From positions 64,935 to 128,934 of the forward strand of contig JBAXLJ010000002.1 of NCBI GenBank assembly GCA_037134915.1: a DNA stretch of 64,000 nucleotides, in the 5' to 3' direction. This stretch comes from Candidatus Falkowbacteria bacterium. Lineage in GTDB: Bacteria > Patescibacteriota > Patescibacteriia > Patescibacteriales > UBA12465. Below, in pieces: positions 602-13,272 of the stretch. A program made the position numbers and the translations under genes. The notes under the pieces are model-generated. The model did not search any database, was not told the origin of the DNA, and saw only the letters and a program-made list of their open reading frames with translations. Within the stretch, counting starts at the first letter, position 1. Every line of letters starts with the position of its first letter.

Positions 602-1846
602 ATGGCAAAAATTCGTATCGCATTTATAAAATTTGGCGGACTTTCGGCTGGTGGCACCGAACGTTGGTTGCAAATGATGGCCGCTAATTTACCTAAAGAT
701 AGATTTGAGGTGGATTACTATTATTGCGATGCGGCGCCATATCTAGGTAGTGACTCAAGACATGCCGATACTAATCCTGAGCGTTTAAAATATATGTTGG
801 ATAATCAGGTTAATTTAATCAAATTTAAAGTTGGTTTTAAAGATGTAACTGTTTCTACTCACGATTGGATTAAAACTGATTTTTGGGAGAAGTTCGATGA
901 GTCCAAATATGATATAGTTCAAGCAGCTAAGGCTGGGCCAGCAGAATATCCTTTTAATAAAATGAAGAAAGTCAGAATCGTTGACTCAGTTCATTTGTTA
1001 GGCGTAGATCATAATCCTAATATTTTTTGGACTTGTTTTTTGTCAGAATGGTCTCGACTTAAATGGTCTCAAATGGGCGGCAGTTTAAGTAAAAGTTCTG
1101 TAATTTATGCATCAGTTGAAAAGCCGGTAACTGATGATGATTTACGGGCAGAATTAAAAATTTCCGCGGATTCAACGGTTGCCGGCTTTCATCAGCGCCC
1201 AGATAATAACATTGCCAGCGAAATACCGCTTAAAGCTTTTGCTCAAATTCAGCAGCCAAATTGGCATTTTGTAATCATGGGTGGCGGAGAATTTTATCGT
1301 AAACAAGCTAAGAATCTGGGATTGCAAAATGTCCATTTTTTAGAGGCTAGCGCTGATTATAATAGAGTCTCTTCTTTTTTAAATACTCTCGATATCTTTG
1401 CTCATGGCCGAAAAGATGGTGAAACTTTCGGAACCGTCTTTGCTGAGGCCATGATTCATGGCCTGCCGTGTTTGTCTCACTGGACAGGTATTGCCGACGC
1501 TCAGGAAGAAACCATGAATAAGGGTGGTCTGTTTGCGGCTAATTTGGAAGATTATAAAGATAAGCTCAAAGAATTTTTTGAAAACAGAGAACTTAGAGAA
1601 GGACTGGGAAACTTCGGAAAAAAATATGCCGAGGAGTTTTATACTATAGATAACTCAGTCAAAAAGCTCTGCTCCGTTTACGAGAAAGTTATGGAAGATG
1701 CACCGGCTACAAAAATAATCGCGGGTAATAATTTAGAAAAAAATCGAGCTAATAGAATATCTTTTAGAAATCGTATTAAAATATTAGTTTATAATAAATA
1801 TTTTTTTATTTGCTATCGATTTTTTAGGAAAATTTTTAAAAAATAG
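602..1846 (+). CDS. glycosyltransferase family 1 (GT4-like, GT-B fold)
   Basis: C-terminal half carries GRKDGETFGTVFAEAMIHGLPCL, typical of GT1/GT4 nucleotide-sugar binding. The ATG lies 6 nt after the upstream stop. Confidence 0.8.
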   Translation: MAKIRIAFIKFGGLSAGGTERWLQMMAANLPKDRFEVDYYYCDAAPYLGSDSRHADTNPERLKYMLDNQVNLIKFKVGFKDVTVSTHDWIKTDFWEKFDESKYDIVQAAKAGPAEYPFNKMKKVRIVDSVHLLGVDHNPNIFWTCFLSEWSRLKWSQMGGSLSKSSVIYASVEKPVTDDDLRAELKISADSTVAGFHQRPDNNIASEIPLKAFAQIQQPNWHFVIMGGGEFYRKQAKNLGLQNVHFLEASADYNRVSSFLNTLDIFAHGRKDGETFGTVFAEAMIHGLPCLSHWTGIADAQEETMNKGGLFAANLEDYKDKLKEFFENRELREGLGNFGKKYAEEFYTIDNSVKKLCSVYEKVMEDAPATKIIAGNNLEKNRANRISFRNRIKILVYNKYFFICYRFFRKIFKK

Positions 1847-1852
1847 AAATAT

Positions 1853-2806
1853 ATGGAAAAACCACGAGTCATTTGTTTGATGCCAGTTAAAAACGAGGTC
1901 GATTTATTGCCAATTACCTTGCCTATTATTTCTACATATTGCGATGTTATTATTATAGCTGACCAAATGTCCGATGATGGATCAAGGGAAGTGTATAAGA
2001 ATTTTCCTAAGGTTAAAGTTATAGATAACACAAGAGAAGGGCACTCAAATCAAGTTCGTTGGGATTTATTAAAAGCCGCCAGAAAATACGATGGTCTTAA
2101 TTTGATATTATGTCTGGATGCTGATGAATATATTCCACCTTTATTATTTAATAAGTTTGTAGATAATCATGAATTCAAAATTGGTGATAGTTTCCGTTTT
2201 CCATGGATACAGCTTTGGAAGTCTGTAAAATATTTCAATAATACAGGTGCTTGGTATAGAAATTATCAACGTGCCGCCTGGATTGATGATGGTAAAACCG
2301 ATTATGATGATAACATAGTAATTAATGATCACATATCTAGGGTGCCGCTCGGCTTTTTAAAAAACTGCAAAAGAATAAAAGATATACCAATTATTCATCT
2401 CCAGTGGCTTTATTGGGAGAGAACTCAGTTTAAGCAGGTATTATATCGTTGCACGGACTTTATTAAAAACCCTAAAAATTATATTTTTATTAACTCTGCC
2501 TACTCAGTTTCTTTAGATGTCCAGAATCTTAAACTAAACGAAGTTCCTGGCAAATGGACTGGCGGTTTTAATTCTTTAGAATTAATTGAAAAATTTCAAC
2601 CAACTTGGCATCGGATGGAGATTTATAAGTTATTTGATAAGTATGGTATAGAATTTTTTGAACCACTAGAGATTTGGCATGTTAAAGAATTGGCAGAAGA
2701 ATTTACAAAGCGTGTCGGCCGAAAACCGGTTTCGATAACTGAAAATAAATTAATCAAAAAATTTAAAGATATTAAAAGGTCTCTTATCAAAATTATTCAC
2801 TATTAA
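1853..2806 (+). CDS. glycosyltransferase family 2-like (GT-A fold)
   Basis: VICLMPVKNEVDLL...IIIADQMSDDGS block and DxD-like LDADE. Sits in the glycan cluster. Confidence 0.65.
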   Translation: MEKPRVICLMPVKNEVDLLPITLPIISTYCDVIIIADQMSDDGSREVYKNFPKVKVIDNTREGHSNQVRWDLLKAARKYDGLNLILCLDADEYIPPLLFNKFVDNHEFKIGDSFRFPWIQLWKSVKYFNNTGAWYRNYQRAAWIDDGKTDYDDNIVINDHISRVPLGFLKNCKRIKDIPIIHLQWLYWERTQFKQVLYRCTDFIKNPKNYIFINSAYSVSLDVQNLKLNEVPGKWTGGFNSLELIEKFQPTWHRMEIYKLFDKYGIEFFEPLEIWHVKELAEEFTKRVGRKPVSITENKLIKKFKDIKRSLIKIIHY

Positions 2807-2815
2807 AATATCTTT

Positions 2816-3526
2816 ATGCTTTCTATAATTACACCCAATTTAAATAATGCTAAATATCTTGAAGATAATATTTTATCTATTAGCAAGCTAAATATTCCTT
2901 TTGAACACATTATTGTTGACGGCGGTTCTACTGACGGTTCTTTGGATATTATTTTAAAATATCCACAGATTAAATTACTTCATCAAACCGAGAAGACTGG
3001 TATGTATGGAGCAATCCATCAAGGCTTTTCTGAAGCTAAGGGGGAATATATAACCTGGGTTAATGCCGATGATCGTATTATAACTGCCGGTTTTGAGGCT
3101 ATGTACCTGGAAATTTCTAAAGGTGTTTGCGATTTTATTTATTCTGATGGTTATTATTATTATGTTAAAGAAAATATTCAGAAGTTTGGTAAAGGAAGAA
3201 GATTTGGAAAATTTTTCTTGAAACACGGCTGTATGCCAACTATGCAACCAAGCAGTATTTATACTAAAAATTTATATCTGGAGATTGGTGGATTGAGATA
3301 TGATAAGTTTAAAATTATTGGTGATTTGGATTTATTCTTAAGAATGGCCAAATTAAAAAAGTGTCGTTTTAAATATATTCGAGCCTTATCCACGGTCTTT
3401 AGTAATCGCGATGATTCCTTAGGAAATAGCAATAGTAATCTTTATTATAAAGAGTTGGCCGATAATCAAATGCCTAAACCAAATTTATTGGTTAGTATTT
3501 TGTATCGCATATTTAAGTATATTTAA
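2816..3526 (+). CDS. glycosyltransferase family 2
   Basis: LSIITPNLNNAKYLEDNILS...IIVDGGSTDGS...WVNADD, the classic GT2 N-terminal signature. Confidence 0.85.
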   Translation: MLSIITPNLNNAKYLEDNILSISKLNIPFEHIIVDGGSTDGSLDIILKYPQIKLLHQTEKTGMYGAIHQGFSEAKGEYITWVNADDRIITAGFEAMYLEISKGVCDFIYSDGYYYYVKENIQKFGKGRRFGKFFLKHGCMPTMQPSSIYTKNLYLEIGGLRYDKFKIIGDLDLFLRMAKLKKCRFKYIRALSTVFSNRDDSLGNSNSNLYYKELADNQMPKPNLLVSILYRIFKYI

Positions 3527-3537
3527 ATTGTAATTTT

Positions 3538-4554
3538 ATGGATAATATTTTTATCTCAATTTGCATTCCTAATTACAACCGCCCCGATGAACTCCTGAGG
3601 CTTTTAAAGACCATCGATTCGATCCAGACCGGTAAGATTGAAATTGTAATCTGCGAAGATAAGAGTCCTAAGATGCTTGAAGTTAGGGGAAAGGTCAGAC
3701 TATTTTGTGAAAATACCCAGTATAAAGTAAACTATGTAGAAAATGAAGTCAATTTGGGCTTTGATAAGAATCTTAGAGCCTGTATTTTAAATGCTCATGG
3801 TAAATGGGTTATATATATGGGTAATGACGATGAGTTTGTTCCTGGGGCTCTAGATCAGCTGATTAATTTTTTGACCGAACACGAAAACCTGGGTTATATC
3901 TTGAAGTCGCATTATTTTATTCATAAAAATGGCAAAAAAGAACGTTTCCGTTATTATGATGGAATTAAATTTTTTGAACCTGGATTGGATACTTATATTC
4001 AAATGTTTCGCAAAAGTGTTTTTATCTCCGGTTTTACTATCAGAAAAGAATTAACAGAATCACTACTGAAAGATGATTTTGATGGCACCCTGCTTTTTCA
4101 ATTATATCTTTTAGCTGAAGTTTGCTTGAAATATCCGGCGGCTTATTTTGATGTTCCTCTGACTCAACAATATGACGAAGGAACTCCGGAATTCGGTAAC
4201 GCGGCTAGCGAAAAAGCCTTATACACCCCCGGATCGATTACGGTTGATAATTCAATTAAATTTTTATCTGGTTATTTTAAGATAACAAGATATATTGATG
4301 AAAAACATAAGTTTAACTCGACGGTTTTAATTGCCAAGGATATGTCTAAATATTTCTATCCGAGTTTAGCTATTCAAAGAAATAAAGGGATTTCCTCTTT
4401 CTTGAAATATGTAAAGGAACTTAATAGACTAGGTTTTAATGTTTCGTTGTATTATTATATTTATATCGGAGCGCTTTTAATCTTTGGTAAAAATATCTGT
4501 GATAATACTATTCGGATTTTAAAGAATATTATCGGTAAAACGCCAAAATTATAA
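3538..4554 (+). CDS. glycosyltransferase family 2
   Basis: ISICIPNYNRPDELLRLL...VICEDKSP...MGNDDEF GT2 signature. Confidence 0.8.
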   Translation: MDNIFISICIPNYNRPDELLRLLKTIDSIQTGKIEIVICEDKSPKMLEVRGKVRLFCENTQYKVNYVENEVNLGFDKNLRACILNAHGKWVIYMGNDDEFVPGALDQLINFLTEHENLGYILKSHYFIHKNGKKERFRYYDGIKFFEPGLDTYIQMFRKSVFISGFTIRKELTESLLKDDFDGTLLFQLYLLAEVCLKYPAAYFDVPLTQQYDEGTPEFGNAASEKALYTPGSITVDNSIKFLSGYFKITRYIDEKHKFNSTVLIAKDMSKYFYPSLAIQRNKGISSFLKYVKELNRLGFNVSLYYYIYIGALLIFGKNICDNTIRILKNIIGKTPKL

Positions 4555-4558
4555 TTTT

Positions 4559-5437
4559 ATGAAAACAGAAAGTTCACTAATGAGTTTTTTCCGTAAGCTT
4601 AATATGGATCCGATTGCTTGGTCGCTGCGCCGGATTTATTGCCCGGTTAAGAAAAGCGATTTGGTTTTAGAATTAGGCAGTGGAAGCAATCCATTTTTCA
4701 GATCGAATGTTCTGTGTGATGCTTTTGCTGAAGACACACCTCATCGCCATTTTGAAAAATTAATTCATGATCGCCCGACGGTCTTGGCTTTTGCTGAAGA
4801 TTTACCGTTTAAGGATGATTCTTTTGATTTTGTAATCGCTTGCCATGTTTTAGAACACTCAGAAGATCCAGCTAAATTTTTATCAGAAATTCAAAGAGTC
4901 GCTAAGGCCGGATATATTGAAGTTCCGGATGCTTTTGTTGAAAGACTGACGACTTATTCAGTGCATCGCTTAGAAATTACTGATCGTGATAATGGGTTGG
5001 TAATTAGAAAGAAGAAGGGAATTATTGAAGACGTCGAAGTTTCGGAGTTATTCCGACACAAGGCCTGGGAAGTCTTTAATGGATTTTTTTCAAAAAAGCC
5101 CTTCCATTTTCACGTTCGCTATTATTGGAACAAAGATAACGGTGGGATTAAATATCACATTGTTAATCCTGAATATAAGTTTGATTGGGATTTGCGGCCG
5201 CTGGAGGGTGTAGTTTTAAAACCTAGCCTCAAACAAAATATAAAAAAAATAATTTTGTTAGCCATCAGAAAGTTTTTATCACAAAATCGTCGTAATGAAA
5301 AAATTAATTTACCTAGTCTTATGAAATGCAAGGCTTGTGGTTACGAAAAGCTTTTAAAAGAAGAAGATGGTCTAATTTGTGGTAATTGTCGGAATAAGTA
5401 TAAAATTAATGGTCATATAGTAAATACAATCTTATGA
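4559..5437 (+). CDS. SAM-dependent methyltransferase with C-terminal Trm112-like zinc ribbon
   Basis: VLELGSGSNP (motif I) and FDFVIACHVLEHSEDP. The C-terminus CKACG...CGNCRNKYKINGHI resembles a Trm112/UPF0434 CxxC-CxxC ribbon. Confidence 0.75.
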   Translation: MKTESSLMSFFRKLNMDPIAWSLRRIYCPVKKSDLVLELGSGSNPFFRSNVLCDAFAEDTPHRHFEKLIHDRPTVLAFAEDLPFKDDSFDFVIACHVLEHSEDPAKFLSEIQRVAKAGYIEVPDAFVERLTTYSVHRLEITDRDNGLVIRKKKGIIEDVEVSELFRHKAWEVFNGFFSKKPFHFHVRYYWNKDNGGIKYHIVNPEYKFDWDLRPLEGVVLKPSLKQNIKKIILLAIRKFLSQNRRNEKINLPSLMKCKACGYEKLLKEEDGLICGNCRNKYKINGHIVNTIL

Positions 5438-6132
5438 AAAAAATAAAAAACTTTATCGTTAAAGAAGTAGTTGATTTGGGAAGCTTCTTTTACAAAAATA
5501 CCAAATACAAAACCAAAGAAAACCCAGCTAAAGTTAATTTGGGCTGTGGGCTGCAGTGTTTACCGGGTTGGATTAATATTGATGGCAGCTTAACGGCTTT
5601 ATTTGGGTCTAAGAAATTTTCTTTTATCAATAAATTGCTGTATAAATTAGCCGGATCGTCTGAATATTATTCTTTTGAGACTTATAATAAAGTAATTCAG
5701 AAGGACGGTCTTAAGTTTTATAACTTAATTAAAGGCGTGCCGGTAAAAAGCGATAGTGCTGATGTTATTTATTGTAGTCATTTTTTAGAACATTTGAATC
5801 GAAATGATGGCCGGTTTTTTCTGGAAGAATGTTTTAGGGCTCTTAAAAAAGGTGGCTTATTAAGAATTGCCGTTCCTGATTTAGATTTCGCTTTTGCCAT
5901 GTATGAGCGCGGTGAAGTCGAGGCGATGCTCGGTCTATTTTTCTACACCTCCGATGATTATAGTTTTACCGCTCATAAACACAACTATAATTTTACTTAT
6001 TTAAAAAGTATTCTAGAAAACCTTGGTTTTAGTAGTGTCGTTAAGCTGAGTTATCAGCAAGGCGAGTGTCCCGGGATTGATTATTTAGATGTTTATCCTG
6101 ATCATTCAATGTACGTTGAGTGCAAAAAATAA
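5434..6132 (+). CDS. class I SAM-dependent methyltransferase
   Basis: VNLGCGLQCLPGWINIDGS and DVIYCSHFLEHL...LKKGGLLRIAVPD. ATGA overlap with the upstream gene. Confidence 0.8.
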   Translation: MKKIKNFIVKEVVDLGSFFYKNTKYKTKENPAKVNLGCGLQCLPGWINIDGSLTALFGSKKFSFINKLLYKLAGSSEYYSFETYNKVIQKDGLKFYNLIKGVPVKSDSADVIYCSHFLEHLNRNDGRFFLEECFRALKKGGLLRIAVPDLDFAFAMYERGEVEAMLGLFFYTSDDYSFTAHKHNYNFTYLKSILENLGFSSVVKLSYQQGECPGIDYLDVYPDHSMYVECKK

Positions 6133-6136
6133 TTTT

Positions 6137-6886
6137 ATGAAAATATCCTTAATCACCCCCACTTATAATTCAGCAGCCACGATCGCTCGGACGATTGATA
6201 GTGTTCTAGAGCAAGACTATACCGACCTCGAATATATTATTGTTGACGGCGCCTCTACTGATAAGACTCAAGAGATTATTCTAAGTTACCAGGATAAAAT
6301 TGATATTAAATTTATTTCGGAACCGGATCAAGGGATTTATGATGCCATGAATAAGGGGGTGAAATTGGCTACCGGCGAGATTTTCGGCATCTTGAATTCC
6401 GATGATGTTTTTGATAATGCTAAAATCTTGTCCAAAGTCGCCGAATCATTTACTGGTCTCGAAGTCGAAGGTGTCTACGGCGATATCAAATATTTTGCTG
6501 ATGATATAAATAAAGTAACCCGCTATTGGTTTTCTGGTTATTACCAAGAAGCTAAATTAAATAGCGGTTGGACAATTCCACACCCCGCCTTATTCTTATT
6601 GCGCTCTGTTTATGATAAATGCGGTTTTTTTAGAACCGATTTTAAGATTGCTGGTGATTATGAATTTATTTTAAGGCTTTTAAAAATTCACCATCTTAAC
6701 CTTAAATACATTTCGACTGTTTTAGTTAGAATGTATGATGGGGGTGTTTCTGGTAGTGGCCTGGAGCAGAGAAAAAAAGGCTGGGCCGAATTGAAACTCG
6801 CTTGGCAAGTTAATAACCTCAAAGTGCCACCATTTTTTATTCTGCGGCGGGTGTTGTCTAAAATTTCGCAATATATTTTTAAATAA
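6137..6886 (+). CDS. glycosyltransferase family 2
   Basis: MKISLITPTYNSAATIARTIDSVLEQDY...IIVDGASTDKT...LNSDD. Start moved from the track's 6089 (which overlaps the upstream gene) to the ATG at 6137. Confidence 0.85.
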   Translation: MKISLITPTYNSAATIARTIDSVLEQDYTDLEYIIVDGASTDKTQEIILSYQDKIDIKFISEPDQGIYDAMNKGVKLATGEIFGILNSDDVFDNAKILSKVAESFTGLEVEGVYGDIKYFADDINKVTRYWFSGYYQEAKLNSGWTIPHPALFLLRSVYDKCGFFRTDFKIAGDYEFILRLLKIHHLNLKYISTVLVRMYDGGVSGSGLEQRKKGWAELKLAWQVNNLKVPPFFILRRVLSKISQYIFK

Positions 6887-6893
6887 TTACTTA

Positions 6894-6926
6894 CAAAAAA
6901 ATGGACCAGTCTGGTCCATTTTTTTA
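6894..6926. terminator. bidirectional rho-independent terminator between convergent genes
   Basis: atggaccag/ctggtccat palindrome (6901-6919) flanked by an A-run (6894-6900) and a T-run (6920-6926). Confidence 0.8.
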
Positions 6927-8009
6927 ATATTCTTGAATGTAAGGCTCAATCTCTAAAGTATTTTCTTGTTTTAAGAATTCGGTTCGCGCGGCTTCATCTT
7001 TAAACAGGTATAGAGCGTAGCCACCGTGTCCGCCACCGCTATATTTTTTAGCCATTTCGTTGGCCCCTGGTAGCGGTTTCATACCTTCGTCTAGCTGAAC
7101 CTGATAACTTAAATTAACCGCTTCACATAGTTTGTGATAGTCAGGTTTTAGAGGGTCAGCAGCTTCTCGGGCCAGCAGTGATGCCTTGGCGATTAAATCA
7201 AAATCTCTTTTAATATCGACGTTATTATAGGTAATGTGGCTTTTACCAGTCCAAAGCAAGGCCATCCTACCTTTTAGGAAACTAGGATCAGTTTTAAAAT
7301 CAAGTTTTGGTTTTAAACCGCTTTTCCAAATACACAAACCAGTTTCTAAAATAACGGCCGGGTCTTGCCAGCCGACGCCCAAATCTAACTCTGACTGGAC
7401 GCTGTTTTTACCAGTTAAAATGGCGTAAGCCGCTGAGCCGCCTAGGCCGCCACCCATTTCGTAGGGCCACTCTTTTAAGCTGACTGTGGGCGTAATGCTA
7501 CAATTGACGACGTAGGCACTATTCCGTGAGAATTTAGGTACATCAAGCCAGCCACCGGCAAAATCAACTCTTAAGGCAATATCTTTTGGGGCTTTAATGT
7601 AGTTGATTATTTCAGTGGTGGAGATTTTTTCAAAATTTAAAGTCTTTGGTAAAACGACATACTTAGCCCCCACCTCATCACATAATGCCATTTTTTCTTT
7701 AGTATATTTATCATCTTCAGTGACCGCTAAAATATCTGGTCTAATTCTTAAGAAGTGTTCTTTAAAGTCTAGACCGAGTTCGCCTACATAATCGCCAACG
7801 ACAACTTCATTAATCATTGAGAGTGATTCCAGTAATCTTTTTTTATGATCTTCGGGTAGAGAAGACTTCTTGTGTTTGTGTAACTCGAGAACGGCATCGT
7901 TAGCAAAGCAGACAATCAGATGGTCTCCTAAGGCTTTAGCTTGATTAAAAAATTCAACATGGCCACCATGTAAAATATCATAGCAACCAGATACAAAAAC
8001 TTTTTTCAT
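6924..8009 (-). CDS. bifunctional cytidylyltransferase-fold nucleotidyltransferase / GHMP-family sugar kinase fusion
   Basis: N-terminus GCYDILHGGHVEFF (HxGH nucleotidyltransferase motif). C-terminus RVDFAGGWLD, GGGLGGSAAY (GHMP motif II-like) and GGGHGGY (motif III-like). Confidence 0.7.
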   Translation of the reverse strand: MKKVFVSGCYDILHGGHVEFFNQAKALGDHLIVCFANDAVLELHKHKKSSLPEDHKKRLLESLSMINEVVVGDYVGELGLDFKEHFLRIRPDILAVTEDDKYTKEKMALCDEVGAKYVVLPKTLNFEKISTTEIINYIKAPKDIALRVDFAGGWLDVPKFSRNSAYVVNCSITPTVSLKEWPYEMGGGLGGSAAYAILTGKNSVQSELDLGVGWQDPAVILETGLCIWKSGLKPKLDFKTDPSFLKGRMALLWTGKSHITYNNVDIKRDFDLIAKASLLAREAADPLKPDYHKLCEAVNLSYQVQLDEGMKPLPGANEMAKKYSGGGHGGYALYLFKDEAARTEFLKQENTLEIEPYIQEY

Positions 8010-8024
8010 AATTTTTTATTTAAT

Positions 8025-9347
8025 TTACCGGCCGCTGCGTCCTAAAACGGTTGCTACTGTTTTAAAAATAATGGCTACATCAAAATAAATAGAGCGGTTT
8101 TTCAAATAATATAAATCGTATTGTAATTTTTCCATGGTGTCTTCAAGCGAGGGGGAGTGATAAACGCCCGAAACCTGGTCCCAGCCACTGACTCCCGGTT
8201 TAATTAAGAGCCTAGTCTTATAGAAAGGAATTTTAGCCGCGAGCTCGCTGACATATTCCGGACGCTCCGGGCGGGGTCCAATAAAACTCATATCACCTCT
8301 TATGATGTTAATCATCTGAGGAATTTCGTCGAGTCTAGTTTTGCGTAAAAAATTTCCTATCACCGTTATCCTGTCATCTTTTTCTTTAGTCATTGAACCG
8401 TCATTGCCTAAGGTCTTCATGGTCCTAAATTTTAGCATGTTAAAAACTTCTTCGTTCTGACCCACTCGTTTTTGTTTAAAAAATATTGGACCACGGCTTT
8501 CTAATTTAATCGCTAACGCAATTAGTGGCCAGAAGATTAAACTGATTAGTAAAAAACTTAAGCTAAAAACTAAATCAAAAACTCTTTTAAATAAATTAAA
8601 GTAATGTTTGTTACTTTCATCTAGATTATCAATAAACCAGGTCTGGTCAATGGCCTCGATTGGCACCTTGCCGTTGATGTTTTCGTAGAAGTCGCTGAGG
8701 CTGTAAAAAGAGACGTTTAAGGATAAGCAGTCAAAGAGAGTTTGAGTTAGCTGGGAATCACCGGCGAGTTCGGCACTGAGTACGATGGTGCGGATATTCT
8801 TTTCTTTGATAATTTCCGGTAAGTTGATAATTTCTTCCTTAGTTTTAAAAACTAAGGCCGTTTCAAAACCGTGATGGGGTTGATTTTTAATATCTTCGAT
8901 TAAATGAATAACCGCTTCATTCCAGCCGATAAAAGCCAAATTATTTTTAGGTAGATACGACTTGACGAAAAAGTTAAAAGCAGAGCGCCAAGCCAAAAAG
9001 AGTAAACCGAAGACAATTACAAAAATCAAGAGAATTGTTTTAGGGGCGACCTCTGATTTATTAACGTAAAAATAAATTATGGATAAGAGGGCTGAAAAGA
9101 TAATTGAATTTAAAGCGGTTAATTTAAACTGACGGGGATTATAGGCCAGGTTTAAGTTGTAAGCGCCGCCAATTGAAAGCACTAAGAGCCAAATAACGAA
9201 AACTGGCAAAAAATAAGGTAGGTTACTTTGCCAAACACCCCCTAGTGGAGTATTTAGATAGCGTAAGACTAGGGAGATGATTAAGGTAAGATATAAAACA
9301 ATGATATCACCCCCGAATAAGATTATCTGTTTGAATCTTTTATGCAT
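8025..9347 (-). CDS. polyprenyl-phosphate sugar phosphotransferase (WbaP/CpsE-type priming enzyme)
   Basis: N-terminal TM helices. C-terminal bacterial sugar-transferase block KRVFDLV...LAIKLESRGPIFFKQKRVG...FNMLKFRTM...DEIPQ...GDMSFIGPRP. Confidence 0.9.
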   Translation of the reverse strand: MHKRFKQIILFGGDIIVLYLTLIISLVLRYLNTPLGGVWQSNLPYFLPVFVIWLLVLSIGGAYNLNLAYNPRQFKLTALNSIIFSALLSIIYFYVNKSEVAPKTILLIFVIVFGLLFLAWRSAFNFFVKSYLPKNNLAFIGWNEAVIHLIEDIKNQPHHGFETALVFKTKEEIINLPEIIKEKNIRTIVLSAELAGDSQLTQTLFDCLSLNVSFYSLSDFYENINGKVPIEAIDQTWFIDNLDESNKHYFNLFKRVFDLVFSLSFLLISLIFWPLIALAIKLESRGPIFFKQKRVGQNEEVFNMLKFRTMKTLGNDGSMTKEKDDRITVIGNFLRKTRLDEIPQMINIIRGDMSFIGPRPERPEYVSELAAKIPFYKTRLLIKPGVSGWDQVSGVYHSPSLEDTMEKLQYDLYYLKNRSIYFDVAIIFKTVATVLGRSGR

Positions 9348-9401
9348 ATGATTATAGGGTAACTATAACAATTTAAGCCTTAAAAATCAATTCCTGACCC
9401 T

Positions 9402-9429
9402 TTGGCTTCTGGGGGCTCTATGATATAAT
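9402..9429 (+). promoter_or_regulatory. sigma70-like promoter of holB (extended -10), predicts a leaderless mRNA
   Basis: TTGGCT (9402-9407), 16 nt, TGaTATAAT (9421-9429). Only 6 nt separate it from the ATG at 9436. Confidence 0.55.
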
Positions 9430-9435
9430 AAAAGC

Positions 9436-10459: not shown

Positions 10460-11584
10460 ATGAAAAGCCAAAAAATTAGTTTTTTAGTACTATTACCGCT
10501 CCTGGCTCTTTCCTTGTCGGCCTGCTCCTTTTCGCTGTCCTCAAATTCTAGTGCGACTTCCGCGGGGCCAGATTTGGGCGGGGTGTTTCTGTCGCTTGAT
10601 AGCGGAGTTACTTTTAAACAGCAAGTGGCCATCCCTTCAGTTTCTGGTTTACCGGGCAGTATTGGTAGTCTAAACGTCCGCTCTTTAGTTCTAGACCCCT
10701 CGGATAACACCGCTATTTATCTAGCCAGTTATAAACAGGGTTTGTATTATTCTTATAATATCACCGCTGGTTGGAATGAGGCGAGCACTTTTCCAAAAGT
10801 CACTATTACTAACTTAGCCATTAATCCCGATAGTAAGTGTGATCTTTACGCGACCTTTGCTAATCGTTTATATAATTCGACTGATTGTGCTCGGACTTGG
10901 AAGCAGATTTATCTTGATTCCAATCAGAACGTGGTTTTTACCGCCCTGGCCATTGATTTTTATAACCCCGCTAATATTTATTTAGGAACTTCTGAAGGCG
11001 CCATTTTAAAGAGTATTGATGGAGGAACTTCCTGGCGGGTGATGAAACGACTCGACCAGTCAATTGCCAAATTAGTCTTATCGCCGCGTGATAGTCGTCA
11101 AATTTATGTTTTGACTCAAAATGCTAAGCTCTATACTTTTTTAACTAATACTAAAACTAACCCTAATACTTCGGCTGACCTAGAGGCTAATTTCGCGGTC
11201 GACAATTGGACCGATCTTAACTCAGTCCTAAAAGATTTGCAGATTGGGGACAATTTTCGTGATTTTGTAATTGTGCCAAGTGACGCTTCAATGTTTTTAA
11301 CTACCGATCATATGATTGCTAAATCTTTAGATCACGGAATTACTTGGCAAAAATTGAATTTGCTTCCTTCGGAGAAAGACGGTATTATAAGGACCATGGC
11401 CGTCAATCCTCAAAACCCCAAGCAGATTTATTACGCTACAAATTTAACTTTTTTTAGATCAATTGATGGCGGGGCGACCTGGTCTAATAAAAAATTACCG
11501 ACCAGCCGGGGCGCTTCCTCAATCGTCATTGATTATAAAAATCCCAATAATATTTATTTAGGTGTTAATGAAACTAGTAATTAA
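10460..11584 (+). CDS. lipoprotein with BNR/sortilin-type beta-propeller repeats (Ycf48-like)
   Basis: Lipobox LSLSAC after a signal peptide. Repeated SxDxGxxW motifs (SIDGGTSW, SLDHGITW, SIDGGATW, STDCARTW). Confidence 0.7.
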   Translation: MKSQKISFLVLLPLLALSLSACSFSLSSNSSATSAGPDLGGVFLSLDSGVTFKQQVAIPSVSGLPGSIGSLNVRSLVLDPSDNTAIYLASYKQGLYYSYNITAGWNEASTFPKVTITNLAINPDSKCDLYATFANRLYNSTDCARTWKQIYLDSNQNVVFTALAIDFYNPANIYLGTSEGAILKSIDGGTSWRVMKRLDQSIAKLVLSPRDSRQIYVLTQNAKLYTFLTNTKTNPNTSADLEANFAVDNWTDLNSVLKDLQIGDNFRDFVIVPSDASMFLTTDHMIAKSLDHGITWQKLNLLPSEKDGIIRTMAVNPQNPKQIYYATNLTFFRSIDGGATWSNKKLPTSRGASSIVIDYKNPNNIYLGVNETSN

Positions 11585-11590
11585 AAATAT

Positions 11591-12145
11591 ATGAGTAATT
11601 TTTTAGAAGACAATAAAGAAGAGTTTACGAGCGTGATTGAATTTTTTAAACGAGATATTTCTAGCTTGCGCACCGGCCGAGCTAACCCGATCATGTTAGA
11701 CGGCGTTCAAGTTGAAGCTTACGGCGTAATGAACGCCTTAAATGGTGTCGCTAATATCGTGGTTTCCGACTCACGCAGCTTTATTATCACCCCCTGGGAT
11801 AAGAGTGTTACTAAAGCGGTAGAAAAGGGGATCGTGGAAGCTAACTTAGGTTTAGGCATTGTTAATGAAGGTGATAAGATTCGTTTAAGTATCCCGCCGC
11901 TAACTGAAGAAAATCGCAAAGAATTAGTTAAGAAATTAAATGAACGCTTAGAAAAGGCTCGCATTTCTCTGCGCCAGGTTCGTGAGGAAGTAAAGACTGG
12001 TATCGAAGCTGAATTTGAGGCTAAAGAAATTACCGAGGATGAAAAATTTCGCTTTGAAAAAGAATTGGATGAATTTGTCGCTAAAAAGAACGAAGAGCTT
12101 AAAGAGTTAAGAGATAAAAAAGATAAAGATATAATGGAAATATAA
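11591..12145 (+). CDS. frr: ribosome recycling factor
   Basis: LRTGRANPIMLDGVQVEAYG...IPPLTEENRKELVK, typical RRF length (184 aa). Confidence 0.95.
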   Translation: MSNFLEDNKEEFTSVIEFFKRDISSLRTGRANPIMLDGVQVEAYGVMNALNGVANIVVSDSRSFIITPWDKSVTKAVEKGIVEANLGLGIVNEGDKIRLSIPPLTEENRKELVKKLNERLEKARISLRQVREEVKTGIEAEFEAKEITEDEKFRFEKELDEFVAKKNEELKELRDKKDKDIMEI

Positions 12146-12150
12146 ATTAA

Positions 12151-13272
12151 ATGATTACTACAATAATAATATTTATCTTAGTGTTGTCAGTTTTGGTGCT
12201 GGCTCACGAATTCGGGCATTTTTTCTCCGCCCGGAAATTTGGCGTTAAATCCGAAGAATTTGGATTAGGTTTTCCGCCACGAGCTATCGGGGTTTATAAA
12301 GATGCTAAAGGGAAGTGGCGTCGTCTTTTAGGCAATAAAAGCGTGGAAGATTTGACTGGTGAGGCAATTCCCGCAGATACGGTTTATTCTTTAAATTGGC
12401 TGCCAATCGGCGGTTTTGTAAAAATCAAAGGCCAAGATGGTGATAGCCGAGAGGAAAACGACAGCTTTGGTGCTAAAAAGATTTGGCAGCGAGCGATTAT
12501 TTTAGCGGCTGGAGTTTTTATGAATATTGTTCTAGCTTTTGTGTTATTCTCTCTGTGCTTTATGATTGGGGCGCCGCAGTCAGTAGATACTGGTGGCCGC
12601 ATTCAAATTACAGAGATCATTAAAGGTTCACCAGCACAGACCGCCGGTATTTTAAGCGGTGATATTGTTTTAGGTGCCGATGGTCAGAATTTTGCCAGCG
12701 TTTTAGAGATGCAAAATTACATTAGTGCCAGAGGCGGCAATGATATTTCTTTAGCACTAAGACGCGGCAATCAAGACTTAAATATTAAAGTTAAACCGGA
12801 ACTTAAAGACGCTAAAGTTTTAATCGGCGTTGGCCTTGATCAAGTTGATACAGTCCATTACTCTTTCTTTAAATCTATTTGGGAGGGTTTAAAACACACC
12901 GCAATTTTGCTTTGGCTGATTCTGGTCGCTTTTGTTGGCTTAATCCGTAATATGATAATTGGTGTTGGCGCCGGTGATGCGGTTGGTGGTCCGATTAGGA
13001 TCGCTCAGATGACCGGTGAAGTGGCTCGCTTTGGTCTGGTCAATCTGCTTAATTTTACCGCTATTCTATCGCTTAATTTGGCAGTGATAAATTTCTTGCC
13101 TTTCCCAGCTTTAGATGGTGGCCGCATTTTATTTTTAATTATCGAAAAGATTAAAGGAAGGCCAGTTAAAAAAGAAACTGAGGCAGTGATTCATAACATT
13201 GGTTTTATTATCTTGCTGGCGCTGATTGTGCTAGTAACTTATAAAGATATTGCCCGCATGTTTATCAAATAA
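12151..13272 (+). CDS. rseP: RIP metalloprotease RseP (M50 site-2 protease)
   Basis: HEFGHF zinc motif in TM1, a central PDZ-like segment, and the NFLPFPALDGG motif. Confidence 0.9.
   Translation: MITTIIIFILVLSVLVLAHEFGHFFSARKFGVKSEEFGLGFPPRAIGVYKDAKGKWRRLLGNKSVEDLTGEAIPADTVYSLNWLPIGGFVKIKGQDGDSREENDSFGAKKIWQRAIILAAGVFMNIVLAFVLFSLCFMIGAPQSVDTGGRIQITEIIKGSPAQTAGILSGDIVLGADGQNFASVLEMQNYISARGGNDISLALRRGNQDLNIKVKPELKDAKVLIGVGLDQVDTVHYSFFKSIWEGLKHTAILLWLILVAFVGLIRNMIIGVGAGDAVGGPIRIAQMTGEVARFGLVNLLNFTAILSLNLAVINFLPFPALDGGRILFLIIEKIKGRPVKKETEAVIHNIGFIILLALIVLVTYKDIARMFIK

Follow-up and report, generated by a model that had tools for sequence, protein, structure and literature searches.

The salvage of L-fucose into GDP-fucose has so far been ascribed either to the bifunctional enzymes Fkp (Bacteroides fragilis) and FKGP (plants) or to a separate fucokinase and pyrophosphorylase. 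When GDP-fucose and fucosylated oligosaccharides are made chemo-enzymatically, Fkp is the enzyme in current use. The gene considered here lies on the minus strand, at positions 6924 to 8009, of a stretch of 64,000 nucleotides from a Candidatus Falkowbacteria bacterium (contig JBAXLJ010000002.1, positions 64,935 to 128,934), hereafter called the window. It encodes a protein of 361 amino acids (aa) in which a nucleotidyltransferase domain is followed by a strongly reduced domain of the GHMP kinase type. Judging from sequence and modelled structure, this protein is probably a small bifunctional enzyme of L-fucose salvage that is analogous, but not orthologous, to Fkp/FKGP and whose product would enter the adjacent glycan cluster. 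It is a member of a family first linked to fucose in 2026, by genetics in Akkermansia.

The genetic evidence concerns Amuc_1591 of Akkermansia muciniphila. D-Arabinose, a structural mimic of L-fucose, inhibits this bacterium; 12 of 12 resistant mutants were altered in Amuc_1591 (V176G, G326E or frameshift), and growth under D-arabinose was rescued by L-fucose or mucin, a phenotype reported for A. muciniphila only (Gut Microbes, June 2026, PMC13313206). On the basis of genetics and modelling, Amuc_1591, which is co-transcribed with murJ, was proposed to be a ‘fucose-nucleotidyltransferase’ feeding lipopolysaccharide (LPS); its N-terminal domain was modelled as an adenylyl/cytidylyltransferase, while the C-terminal half, which superposes on FKP (9IIP), was termed a ‘sugar-binding domain’ (PMC13313206). 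The window protein is 57% identical to Amuc_1591 (sequence from the supplement) over its full length (363 columns, E 3e-136), with the same two-domain architecture and all motifs in common. Both resistance sites are conserved, V176 as V176 and G326 as G327 (in GHMP motif III) of the window protein, and both columns are invariant. The genetic settings differ: Amuc_1591 is transcribed with murJ and linked to LPS core fucose, and murJ also directly follows the homolog in A. glycaniphila, whereas in the window the gene comes after that of a priming phosphoglycosyltransferase, within a Patescibacteria-like glycan cluster. The two analyses also differ on the C-terminal half, a sugar-binding domain in the Akkermansia paper and, as read here from sequence, a kinase. 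What the present analysis would add to that work is the apparently intact kinase catalytic set, genomic evidence for fucose across phyla, and the breadth of the family, which extends to Patescibacteria, phages and algae and includes split and triplicated forms. Literature searches for this domain combination returned nothing earlier than the 2026 Akkermansia paper. The original prediction for this gene, made from the DNA letters alone, had reckoned with a family of this architecture being characterised already; this is so in part, through that genetics and modelling.

Fkp and FKGP perform the sequence of reactions proposed here (fucose to fucose-1-phosphate to NDP-fucose) with the same domain order, transferase N-terminal and kinase C-terminal, and the kinases are remotely homologous, sharing the R, W, D, Q, D and Gly-rich motifs. 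Fkp is, however, about 950 aa long and only about 17% identical; its kinase is about 125 aa larger and has an adenine pocket, and in place of the PF01467 HxGH domain of the window protein it has a pyrophosphorylase of a different fold, GT-A-like NTP_transferase plus beta-helix. The Fkp equivalog NF009948 is not among the 11 NCBIfam families that match the window protein at E<=1. The window protein is a functional analogue of Fkp and not its relative in architecture. With HldE and HldC it shares the nucleotidyltransferase fold, the HxGH and STT motifs and the logic of a kinase–transferase fusion; the HldE kinase, in contrast, is PfkB-type, N-terminal and acts on heptose-7-phosphate, in a route that needs GmhA and GmhB, whereas the kinase here is GHMP and C-terminal. 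The original prediction had combined the nucleotidyltransferase of HldE with the kinase class and domain order of Fkp, and folds and order agree with this. The NDP-heptose enzymes of Tang et al. (2024) likewise span bacteria, viruses and eukaryotes and include mono-, di- (HldE-type) and tri-domain forms; a GHMP-fused type is not described in two commentaries on that work (among them PMC11573728). The CTP-dependent cytidylyltransferases TagD, ECT and CCT match the N-terminal domain at HxGH, at (V/I)(D/N)EVV, at the basic residues that bind the substrate and at ISTT, but they act on small phospho-alcohols instead of sugar-1-phosphates and carry no fused kinase. HddA and WcbL are as similar to the C-terminal domain in fold and profile as FKP is, and share the catalytic R13, D22, Q162 and D163; they differ in being full-size (about 345 aa) and stand-alone and in phosphorylating a 7-phospho-heptose. 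Finally, the phage enzyme AfhE (RB69 gp52:53, DLP3 gp82), which makes UDP-arabinose for DNA glycosylation (PMC13326640), is also bifunctional, with an N-terminal transferase and a C-terminal kinase, and is paired with glycosyltransferases (GTs). It is built from unrelated folds (MurU-like NTP_transferase and APH-like kinase) and uses arabinose-5-phosphate; an identity of the window protein with this arabinosyl-DNA enzyme was rejected because both folds differ.

The features of the gene, all on the minus strand, are as follows.

6924..8009, complete coding sequence with ATG start, 361 aa plus stop: predicted bifunctional nucleotidyltransferase/mini-GHMP kinase, ortholog of Amuc_1591
7590..8009, aa 1-140: cytidylyltransferase-like domain (HIGH-motif, Rossmann-like), by PF01467 and Foldseek
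7959..7970, aa 14-17: HxGH nucleotide-binding signature H14-G-G-H17 (HGGH), aligned with TagD HWGH
7842..7877: basic residues K45, K47, K48 and H55, K56, by phmmer alignment to TagD 1coz
7614..7625, aa 129-132: ISTT motif, counterpart of TagD RTEGISTT and of HENase (F/L)xxGxSTT
6927..7589, aa 141-361: reduced GHMP-kinase domain, about 220 aa as against about 350 in FKP, by Foldseek and profile search of the PDB
7536..7571, aa 147-158: GHMP motif I, RVDFAGGWLDVP, by HMMER alignment to FKP
7428..7454, aa 186-194: GHMP motif II, the Gly-rich phosphate-binding loop GGGLGGSAA, with G188, G190, G191 and S192 invariant
7362..7373, aa 213-216: GWQD, by HMMER alignment, with Q215 matching FKP Q761 and D216 matching FKP D762 and WcbL D163
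7017..7049, aa 321-331: GHMP motif III, KKYSGGGHGGY, by alignment to FKP KLPGAGGGGY

The reading frame is thus as originally described, and every motif string then reported was found at coordinates verified by translation.

The assignment of the N-terminal domain lies well beyond chance. The original prediction had placed residues 1 to about 135 in the cytidylyltransferase fold and had suggested a profile check with CTP_transf_like; that model (PF01467) matches aa 6-135 with an E-value of 3.4e-11 and 43.9 bits against a gathering cut-off of 21. The best PDB sequence matches in phmmer are ECT and TagD (E 1e-11 to 1e-12), and Foldseek comparison of the N-terminal half with the PDB gave TM-scores on the target of 0.83 for 3glv, 0.84-0.86 for TagD 2b7l and 0.66-0.74 for HldC 5xf2 (the 0.66 being chain B, with chains A and E within 0.72-0.86), at root-mean-square deviations of 2.1-2.5 Å for the better chains. 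The nearest NCBIfam models are RfaE domain II and TagD, both far under their equivalog cut-offs; RfaE domain II/HldE gives the best PHROG as well as NCBIfam matches, and the equivalog cut-offs were reached neither for rfaE_dom_II (59.7 bits against 181.5) nor for HldE (53.6 bits against 521). H14, H17, K45, H55, K56, K122, S130 and T131 are invariant in 40 homologs. K45, K47, K48 and H55, K56 align with TagD K44, K46, K47 and H54, R55, which we take to be the residues that bind the phospho-substrate, and K122-T together with I129-S-T-T matches the C-terminal (R/K)T...ISTT motif of the fold. The HENase motif, as given in PMC11573728, is (F/L)xxGxSTT, called STTR5 when x is R; the window sequence, N-F-E-K-I-S-T-T, does not conform to it, since it has neither Gly at position 4 nor Arg at position 5.

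Recognition of the C-terminal domain was less straightforward. Pfam found no match in this half even at E<=10, so that the GHMP_kinases_N/C check proposed with the original prediction failed; across 25 diverse family members the GHMP models yielded one marginal GHMP_kinases_C match (0.027) and nothing usable, NCBIfam likewise gave no usable match, and single-sequence phmmer against the PDB was marginal (0.35). The Pfam models fail because the domain is too reduced and divergent, and the assignment therefore had to come from fold and profile. AlphaFold2, supplied with 40 aligned sequences, gave a confident model with a mean predicted local distance difference test score (pLDDT) of 90.6 and no segment below 50. 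When its C-terminal half was compared with the PDB in Foldseek, the fucokinase part of FKP (9iip, 1.2e-9) and WcbL (4usm, 1.5e-9) ranked on top, followed by mevalonate kinases and galactokinase, with probability 1.00, including 9iip and 4usm/4usk. A family profile built on the C-terminal domain and run against the whole set of PDB sequences retrieved FKP (1e-4), the heptose kinase 3k85 (1.7e-3), mevalonate kinase (2.6e-3) and WcbL (0.013); the only non-GHMP entries were two cohesin rows at chance level (E about 0.7). Fold, profile search and invariance of the motifs in 40 homologs agree with the GHMP motifs originally noted, and the structure prediction proposed at the same time leads to the same assignment. 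The contingency then raised, that this half might not be a GHMP kinase at all, is not what fold and profile indicate.

The functions of the matching residues are known from FKP, where R592 stabilises the leaving group, W599 stacks on C4–C6 of fucose, D601 and T602 bind O3/O4, with Q761 on O4, D762 serves as general base, E751 is indispensable and the loop 712-720 holds the phosphates (PMC11982464). Replacement of W599 by alanine lowers kcat/Km more than 3000-fold (PMC11982464). In WcbL the counterparts are R13, D22, Q162, D163 and S118-120 (PMC4691232), and mutation of the matching catalytic residues kills activity in both enzymes (PMC11982464, PMC4691232). HMMER alignments place R147 on R592, W154 on W599 and D156 on D601, and G213-W-Q-D216 on G759-W-Q-D762 (GGGWQD in FKP); the GGGLGGS loop and E207, which lies between motif II and GWQD, are equated with FKP loop 712-720 and E751 by order and spacing. 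The fucokinase-type pocket (FKP R592, W599, D601, Q761 and D762) is thus present as R147, W154, D156, Q215 and D216, the sole differing pocket residue being V157 in place of T602. R147, W154, D156, E207, Q215, D216, the Gly-Ser loop and the motif III glycines are invariant in alignments of 40 and of 25 sequences. W154 is informative because the heptose kinase 3k85 has Gly at this position in the profile alignment. These alignments suggest that the C-terminal half retains the full kinase catalytic set despite the loss of about 125 aa relative to the FKP kinase, an extent derived from FKP residue numbering: motif I and motif II are 39 aa apart (147 to 186) as against about 120 aa in FKP (592 to 712), and R147 and D216 are 69 aa apart as against 170. 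Both halves of the protein look active.

The sugar is indicated by gene neighbourhoods. These were compared in 124 related loci and the window, using tBLASTn probes with a match cut-off of E<1e-6 and, in high-GC loci, a gene caller aware of GC content at third codon positions. Next to the gene, 11 distinct loci have true orthologs of Gmd, sharing 57-81% identity with the E. coli protein, and of Fcl (50-59%). In seven Verrucomicrobiae/Akkermansiaceae loci (L001/L054, L027, L039, L076, L078, L083 and L084; at about 7-16 kb in each) the order is fcl, gmd, our gene and a WecG/TagA-type GT, with 8-439 bp separating our gene from gmd; the GT is often followed by UDP-glucose dehydrogenase or epimerase, APS kinase, CysD and CysN, and the presence of fucose-activating and sulfate-activating genes side by side suggests that the glycan contains fucose and is sulfated. 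An Opitutaceae locus has the gene before gmd and fcl, an unclassified metagenome-assembled genome (MAG) has it before fcl, and in a Myxococcales and a deltaproteobacterial MAG fcl or gmd lies within 4-5 kb. Three Opitutales loci place the gene between fucI (fucose isomerase) and fucU (fucose mutarotase), with gaps of 71-90 and 5-6 bp, and two of the three have a major facilitator superfamily permease upstream of fucI. FucU supplies the beta anomer used by fucokinases. Three Patescibacteria-type loci have a gene of GT11, the alpha-1,2-fucosyltransferase family, at a distance of 28 bp to 7.4 kb, and two phage contigs have one at about 7 kb. Altogether a fucose-specific neighbour is found in 19 distinct loci and in at least five arrangements, and we estimate chance adjacency within 10 kb at less than about 1% per locus, assuming single-copy genes and genomes of several Mb. 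When the 150 genes directly flanking ours in 60 non-redundant loci were pooled and scanned with Pfam, Epimerase/GDP_Man_Dehyd ranked first (12 and 9 members), followed by Bac_transf (5 members, in 5 related loci), and L-fucose isomerase came to light as well.

No GmhA or GmhB was detected in the window or the 124 loci with tBLASTn probes of approximate sequence, and the negative is as good as these probes; the approach does work, since Gmd and Fcl probes of the same kind found orthologs 80% identical. The heptose analogy that the original prediction drew from HldE is accordingly not supported. Where that prediction left the substrate unknown, the 19 loci together with the Amuc_1591 genetics (PMC13313206) point to L-fucose, which is the most likely substrate. 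The suggestion that the enzyme would suit organisms with little de novo sugar metabolism fares less well: the family is common in metabolically rich Verrucomicrobiota, and because these carry the de novo genes gmd and fcl beside it, the gene is no special adaptation of reduced metabolism.

In some Opitutaceae and a deltaproteobacterial MAG (L052:~850-4200, L048, L059 and L086) the gene adjoins an open reading frame of 1110 aa. This neighbour has an Fkp-like fucokinase domain, detected by NF009948 at 5e-18, with the atypical motifs RMDLSHSSWSD and GSRLAVST, and its C-terminal half resembles UDP-sugar pyrophosphorylases by eye (VVTLAAGAGSRW). It appears to be another, uncharacterised kinase/pyrophosphorylase fusion. 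Profile–profile comparison of the mini-GHMP domain with this Opitutaceae kinase gave a probability of 1.4%, the profile of the latter being made of three near-identical sequences.

From the conserved residues, the mini-GHMP domain would bind free beta-L-fucose, with W154 stacking on C4–C6 and D156 and Q215 holding O3/O4. D216 would then act as the general base in phosphorylation of O1 from ATP bound on the GGGLGGS loop, with R147 stabilising the leaving group, to give beta-L-fucose-1-phosphate. In a second step, the HxGH domain would join fucose-1-phosphate and an NTP into NDP-beta-L-fucose and pyrophosphate. As the context suggests, the product would go into a glycan that the co-transcribed priming transferase begins and the convergent GT2 and GT4 enzymes lengthen. 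The original prediction of a one-protein route from sugar to sugar-1-phosphate to NDP-sugar thus seems the best-supported mechanism, and we infer both activities, as well as the sugar used in the genome of the window, from this body of comparisons. The nucleotide is most likely GTP, and the product GDP-fucose, because the gene is repeatedly found beside de novo GDP-fucose genes and GT11-family genes.

Several observations weigh against this reading. The stretch of about 80 aa between motifs I and II that carries D644, M645, P666 and I669 in FKP, the residues contacting adenine there (PMC11982464), is absent, and ATP binding is left unexplained because of the missing segment. Most of the sugar-contacting residues (R, D, Q and D) are common to manno-heptose kinases, so that only W154 and gene context discriminate. 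No homolog of gmd, fcl, fucI, fucU or GT11 is present in the 64-kb window, and the fucose assignment for this genome consequently rests on orthology. In some Opitutaceae the Fkp-like neighbour would make two fucose-activating enzymes redundant. Moreover, we know of no member of the cytidylyltransferase-like fold that uses GTP. Characterised relatives use CTP, ATP or UTP (PMC11573728). It is therefore possible, if rather doubtful, that the transferase makes an unprecedented donor such as CDP- or ADP-L-fucose, a second fucosylation currency read by dedicated glycosyltransferases. Such enzymes might be the GT of WecG type, which in Verrucomicrobiae invariably comes after the gene, and the Glyco_tranf_2_5 GT, which does so in phages. 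Some phages carry the gene amid functions of nucleotide and DNA metabolism, and there the alternative donor could serve DNA or virion glycosylation.

Other explanations concern the kinase and the sugar. If the C-terminal domain were non-catalytic and served to present fucose-1-phosphate made elsewhere, the protein would be a nucleotidyltransferase only. This would agree with the absence of about 125 aa of a normal GHMP kinase, the adenine-binding segment of FKP included, with the failure of the Pfam kinase models and with the name fucose-nucleotidyltransferase, not kinase, given in PMC13313206. It is nevertheless unlikely, since all residues that phosphoryl transfer requires (R147, S192 with the Gly loop, E207, D216, the glycines of motif III) are invariant across phyla, the resistance mutation G326E falls in motif III, the operons reveal no other evident source of fucose-1-phosphate, and the mini-GHMP domain persists as a separate gene beside a nucleotidyltransferase gene. 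A different L-galacto-configured sugar of similar shape, such as D-arabinose or L-galactose, might be the substrate at least in some lineages, for instance phages, which would then make a rarer activated sugar. Indeed, D-arabinose is evidently accepted by Amuc_1591 in vivo (PMC13313206), T602 of FKP, which binds O3, is replaced by V157, and phage copies are paired with their own glycosyltransferase among DNA-metabolism genes, while other phages make NDP-arabinose for DNA glycosylation through an analogous nucleotidyltransferase–kinase fusion (PMC13326640). The fucose-specific neighbours fucI, fucU, gmd, fcl and GT11, the high uniformity of pocket residues across the family and the rescue of D-arabinose toxicity by L-fucose, which suggests that fucose is preferred (PMC13313206), make this improbable.

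The pathway itself might also be another. An anomeric mannose kinase joined to a guanylyltransferase could supply GDP-mannose to Gmd and Fcl in place of ManB and ManC; in classical clusters gmd and fcl travel with manB/manC, and no ManC-like gene was seen in the Verrucomicrobiae block. GDP-alpha-D-mannose and GDP-beta-L-fucose have the same absolute configuration at C1, the kinase is equally close to manno-heptose kinases and FKP, and a GMP/PMI-type cupin gene lies near ours in some phages. We consider this very unlikely all the same, because it leaves unexplained the fucI–gene–fucU operons, the D-arabinose/L-fucose genetics and the Trp at the position of W599, and because green algae and Verrucomicrobiota would already own the standard route to GDP-mannose. 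Least expected would be an analogue of HldE, in which an HddA-type GHMP kinase for heptose-7-phosphate is fused to an HldC-type adenylyltransferase for NDP-heptose. In its favour, the N-terminal domain is matched best by RfaE domain II/HldE in both NCBIfam and PHROG, the leading matches in fold and profile include WcbL and further heptose kinases, and NDP-heptose enzymes are known in viruses and eukaryotes (PMC11573728). Against this stand the score of 59.7 bits where the equivalog cut-off is 181.5, the lack of matches to the approximate GmhA/GmhB probes in the window and the 124 loci when the 1,7-bisphosphate made by a heptose kinase needs GmhB, the Trp where 3k85 has Gly, the mismatch of NFEKISTT with the HENase motif (F/L)xxGxSTT, and the separate small HldC-like gene that one phage group has in addition; such a function is highly improbable.

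If the protein does salvage L-fucose as proposed, the family would be a second, independently assembled solution to this task at about 40% of the size of Fkp. In the event that GDP-fucose is made, it would to our knowledge contain the first guanylyltransferase in the HxGH cytidylyltransferase fold, and would offer an attractive small catalyst for the synthesis of GDP-fucose and fucosylated oligosaccharides; a different nucleotide-fucose would amount to a new glycosyl donor. The alignments further suggest that a GHMP kinase can lose the lobe in which adenine is normally bound and yet keep every catalytic residue. Thousands of proteins annotated as ‘cytidyltransferase-like’ could gain a specific role.

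The family is far wider than the Akkermansia report implied, being found in at least 569 species genomes, Patescibacteria included, several phage lineages and chlorophyte algae. The search for the same architecture in public genomes, called for in the original prediction, gave 4422 matches among 5.8 billion proteins. The best 120 of these 4422 are full-length, nearly all 350-400 aa long and at least 59% identical; they span Patescibacteria, Bacteroidota, Verrucomicrobiota and green algae, and all are annotated only as ‘cytidyltransferase-like’. Metagenomes and Patescibacteria MAGs supply the nearest homologs (98-77% identity); among genomes, a Nomurabacteria MAG matches best, at 79%. The GTDB species genomes encoding the family, among those listed, belong mostly to Verrucomicrobiota, with Planctomycetota, Myxococcales, Kiritimatiellae, Lentisphaerae, Cytophagales and Ignavibacteria as other groups. 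An exhaustive phmmer search with the C-terminal domain against 1.84 billion representatives retrieved only 225 proteins at E<=1e-3, which makes the mini-GHMP domain an isolated sequence family that single sequences do not connect to canonical GHMP kinases.

Architectural variants occur as well. In a split form (P0123), a stand-alone mini-GHMP gene of 231 aa starts 2 nt after a separate CTP_transf_like gene of 161 aa; at the split-gene locus L126, an APS kinase gene and a PAPS_reduct-family gene lie just downstream. A protein of 500 aa (P0082) has two tandem nucleotidyltransferase domains before the mini-GHMP domain, the first without HxGH (FDKLTAGD). A stand-alone mini-GHMP paralog of 217 aa (P0192) no longer has the Trp, the GLGGS loop or GWQD and has probably lost its activity. 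Chlorophytes encode full-length homologs about 60% identical to the bacterial ones (P0077, P0086, P0092 and P0106), some of them N-terminally extended. P0077, from Dunaliella salina, lies on a contig of 520 kb and P0086, from Tetradesmus obliquus, on one of 6 Mb; these copies would suggest horizontal transfer into green algae, with contig size as the check on contamination.

Among viruses, 37 IMG/VR contigs carry the family. In the cultured phages of INPHARED, tblastn found matches to the N-terminal domain only and no full-length homolog, and a fold search of BFVD likewise gave N-terminal-domain matches only. About 13 IMG/VR phage contigs (L097-L111, e.g. L098:6036-11320) share one gene order, in which QueC, an amidotransferase, GNAT and a dATP/dGTP diphosphohydrolase N-domain precede the gene, and a Glyco_tranf_2_5 GT, a small RfaE-II-like nucleotidyltransferase, a GMP/PMI cupin, DnaB and, by eye, a DHH-family phosphoesterase-like gene follow it. 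Genes of the 7-deazaguanine DNA-modification type directly adjoin the sugar-nucleotide/GT module in this group. In L088, L090, L093 and L095 (about 11080-12460) the gene is followed by a fusion of 458 aa between a beta-phosphoglucomutase-type HAD and an NTP_transferase; genes that look like a methyltransferase and a glycosyltransferase and then a GT11-like gene lie downstream, and the whole appears to be a phage-borne multi-sugar glycan cluster. On a jumbo-phage-like contig of 207 kb (L006:6398-9089), and with it L089, the gene comes right after dUTPase, dCMP deaminase and YAcAr (SLOG); in L006 a B-family DNA polymerase and a DNA methylase are encoded downstream of it, and there is no glycosyltransferase in the immediate vicinity. 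In further phage contigs its partners are NDP-sugar dehydrogenases or GTs. The phage contexts support a role in sugar-nucleotide synthesis, although they do not indicate what is glycosylated.

In the window, the surroundings of the gene comprise the following elements.

8025..9347, minus strand: priming phosphoglycosyltransferase (Bac_transf), PF02397 at E 2.5e-62, upstream operon partner
6895..6925: hairpin with a 14-pair stem, set between an A-run and a T-run, AAAAAAATGGACCAGTCTGGTCCATTTTTTT, from a terminator scan and the sequence
602..6886, plus strand: convergent glycan-assembly block of one GT4, four GT2 and two S-adenosylmethionine-dependent methyltransferases, by Pfam
9348..9435, minus strand: divergent intergenic region with promoter-like sites for the operon, by consensus matches only

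The gap between the priming transferase gene and ours is exactly 15 nt by coordinates verified by translation, which confirms the position in a glycan cluster originally noted. The hairpin at 6895-6925 sits between our gene and a convergent GT2 gene (6089-6886, plus strand) and is a probable bidirectional intrinsic terminator shared by both, closing the operon. From the 15-nt gap and the hairpin before the convergent block, the two genes therefore form an operon, phosphoglycosyltransferase first, inside the glycan cluster. Sigma-70-like matches, by consensus only, lie at 9390-9362 and 9452-9425 on the minus strand. The enzymes of the 602..6886 block are the likely users of the activated sugar. 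Farther along, just beyond a gene resembling DNA polymerase III delta', an open reading frame at 10460-11584 on the plus strand combines BNR/Asp-box and Sortilin-Vps10-type repeats with what by eye is a lipoprotein-type N-terminus (LSLSAC); it is unrelated to the salvage enzyme.

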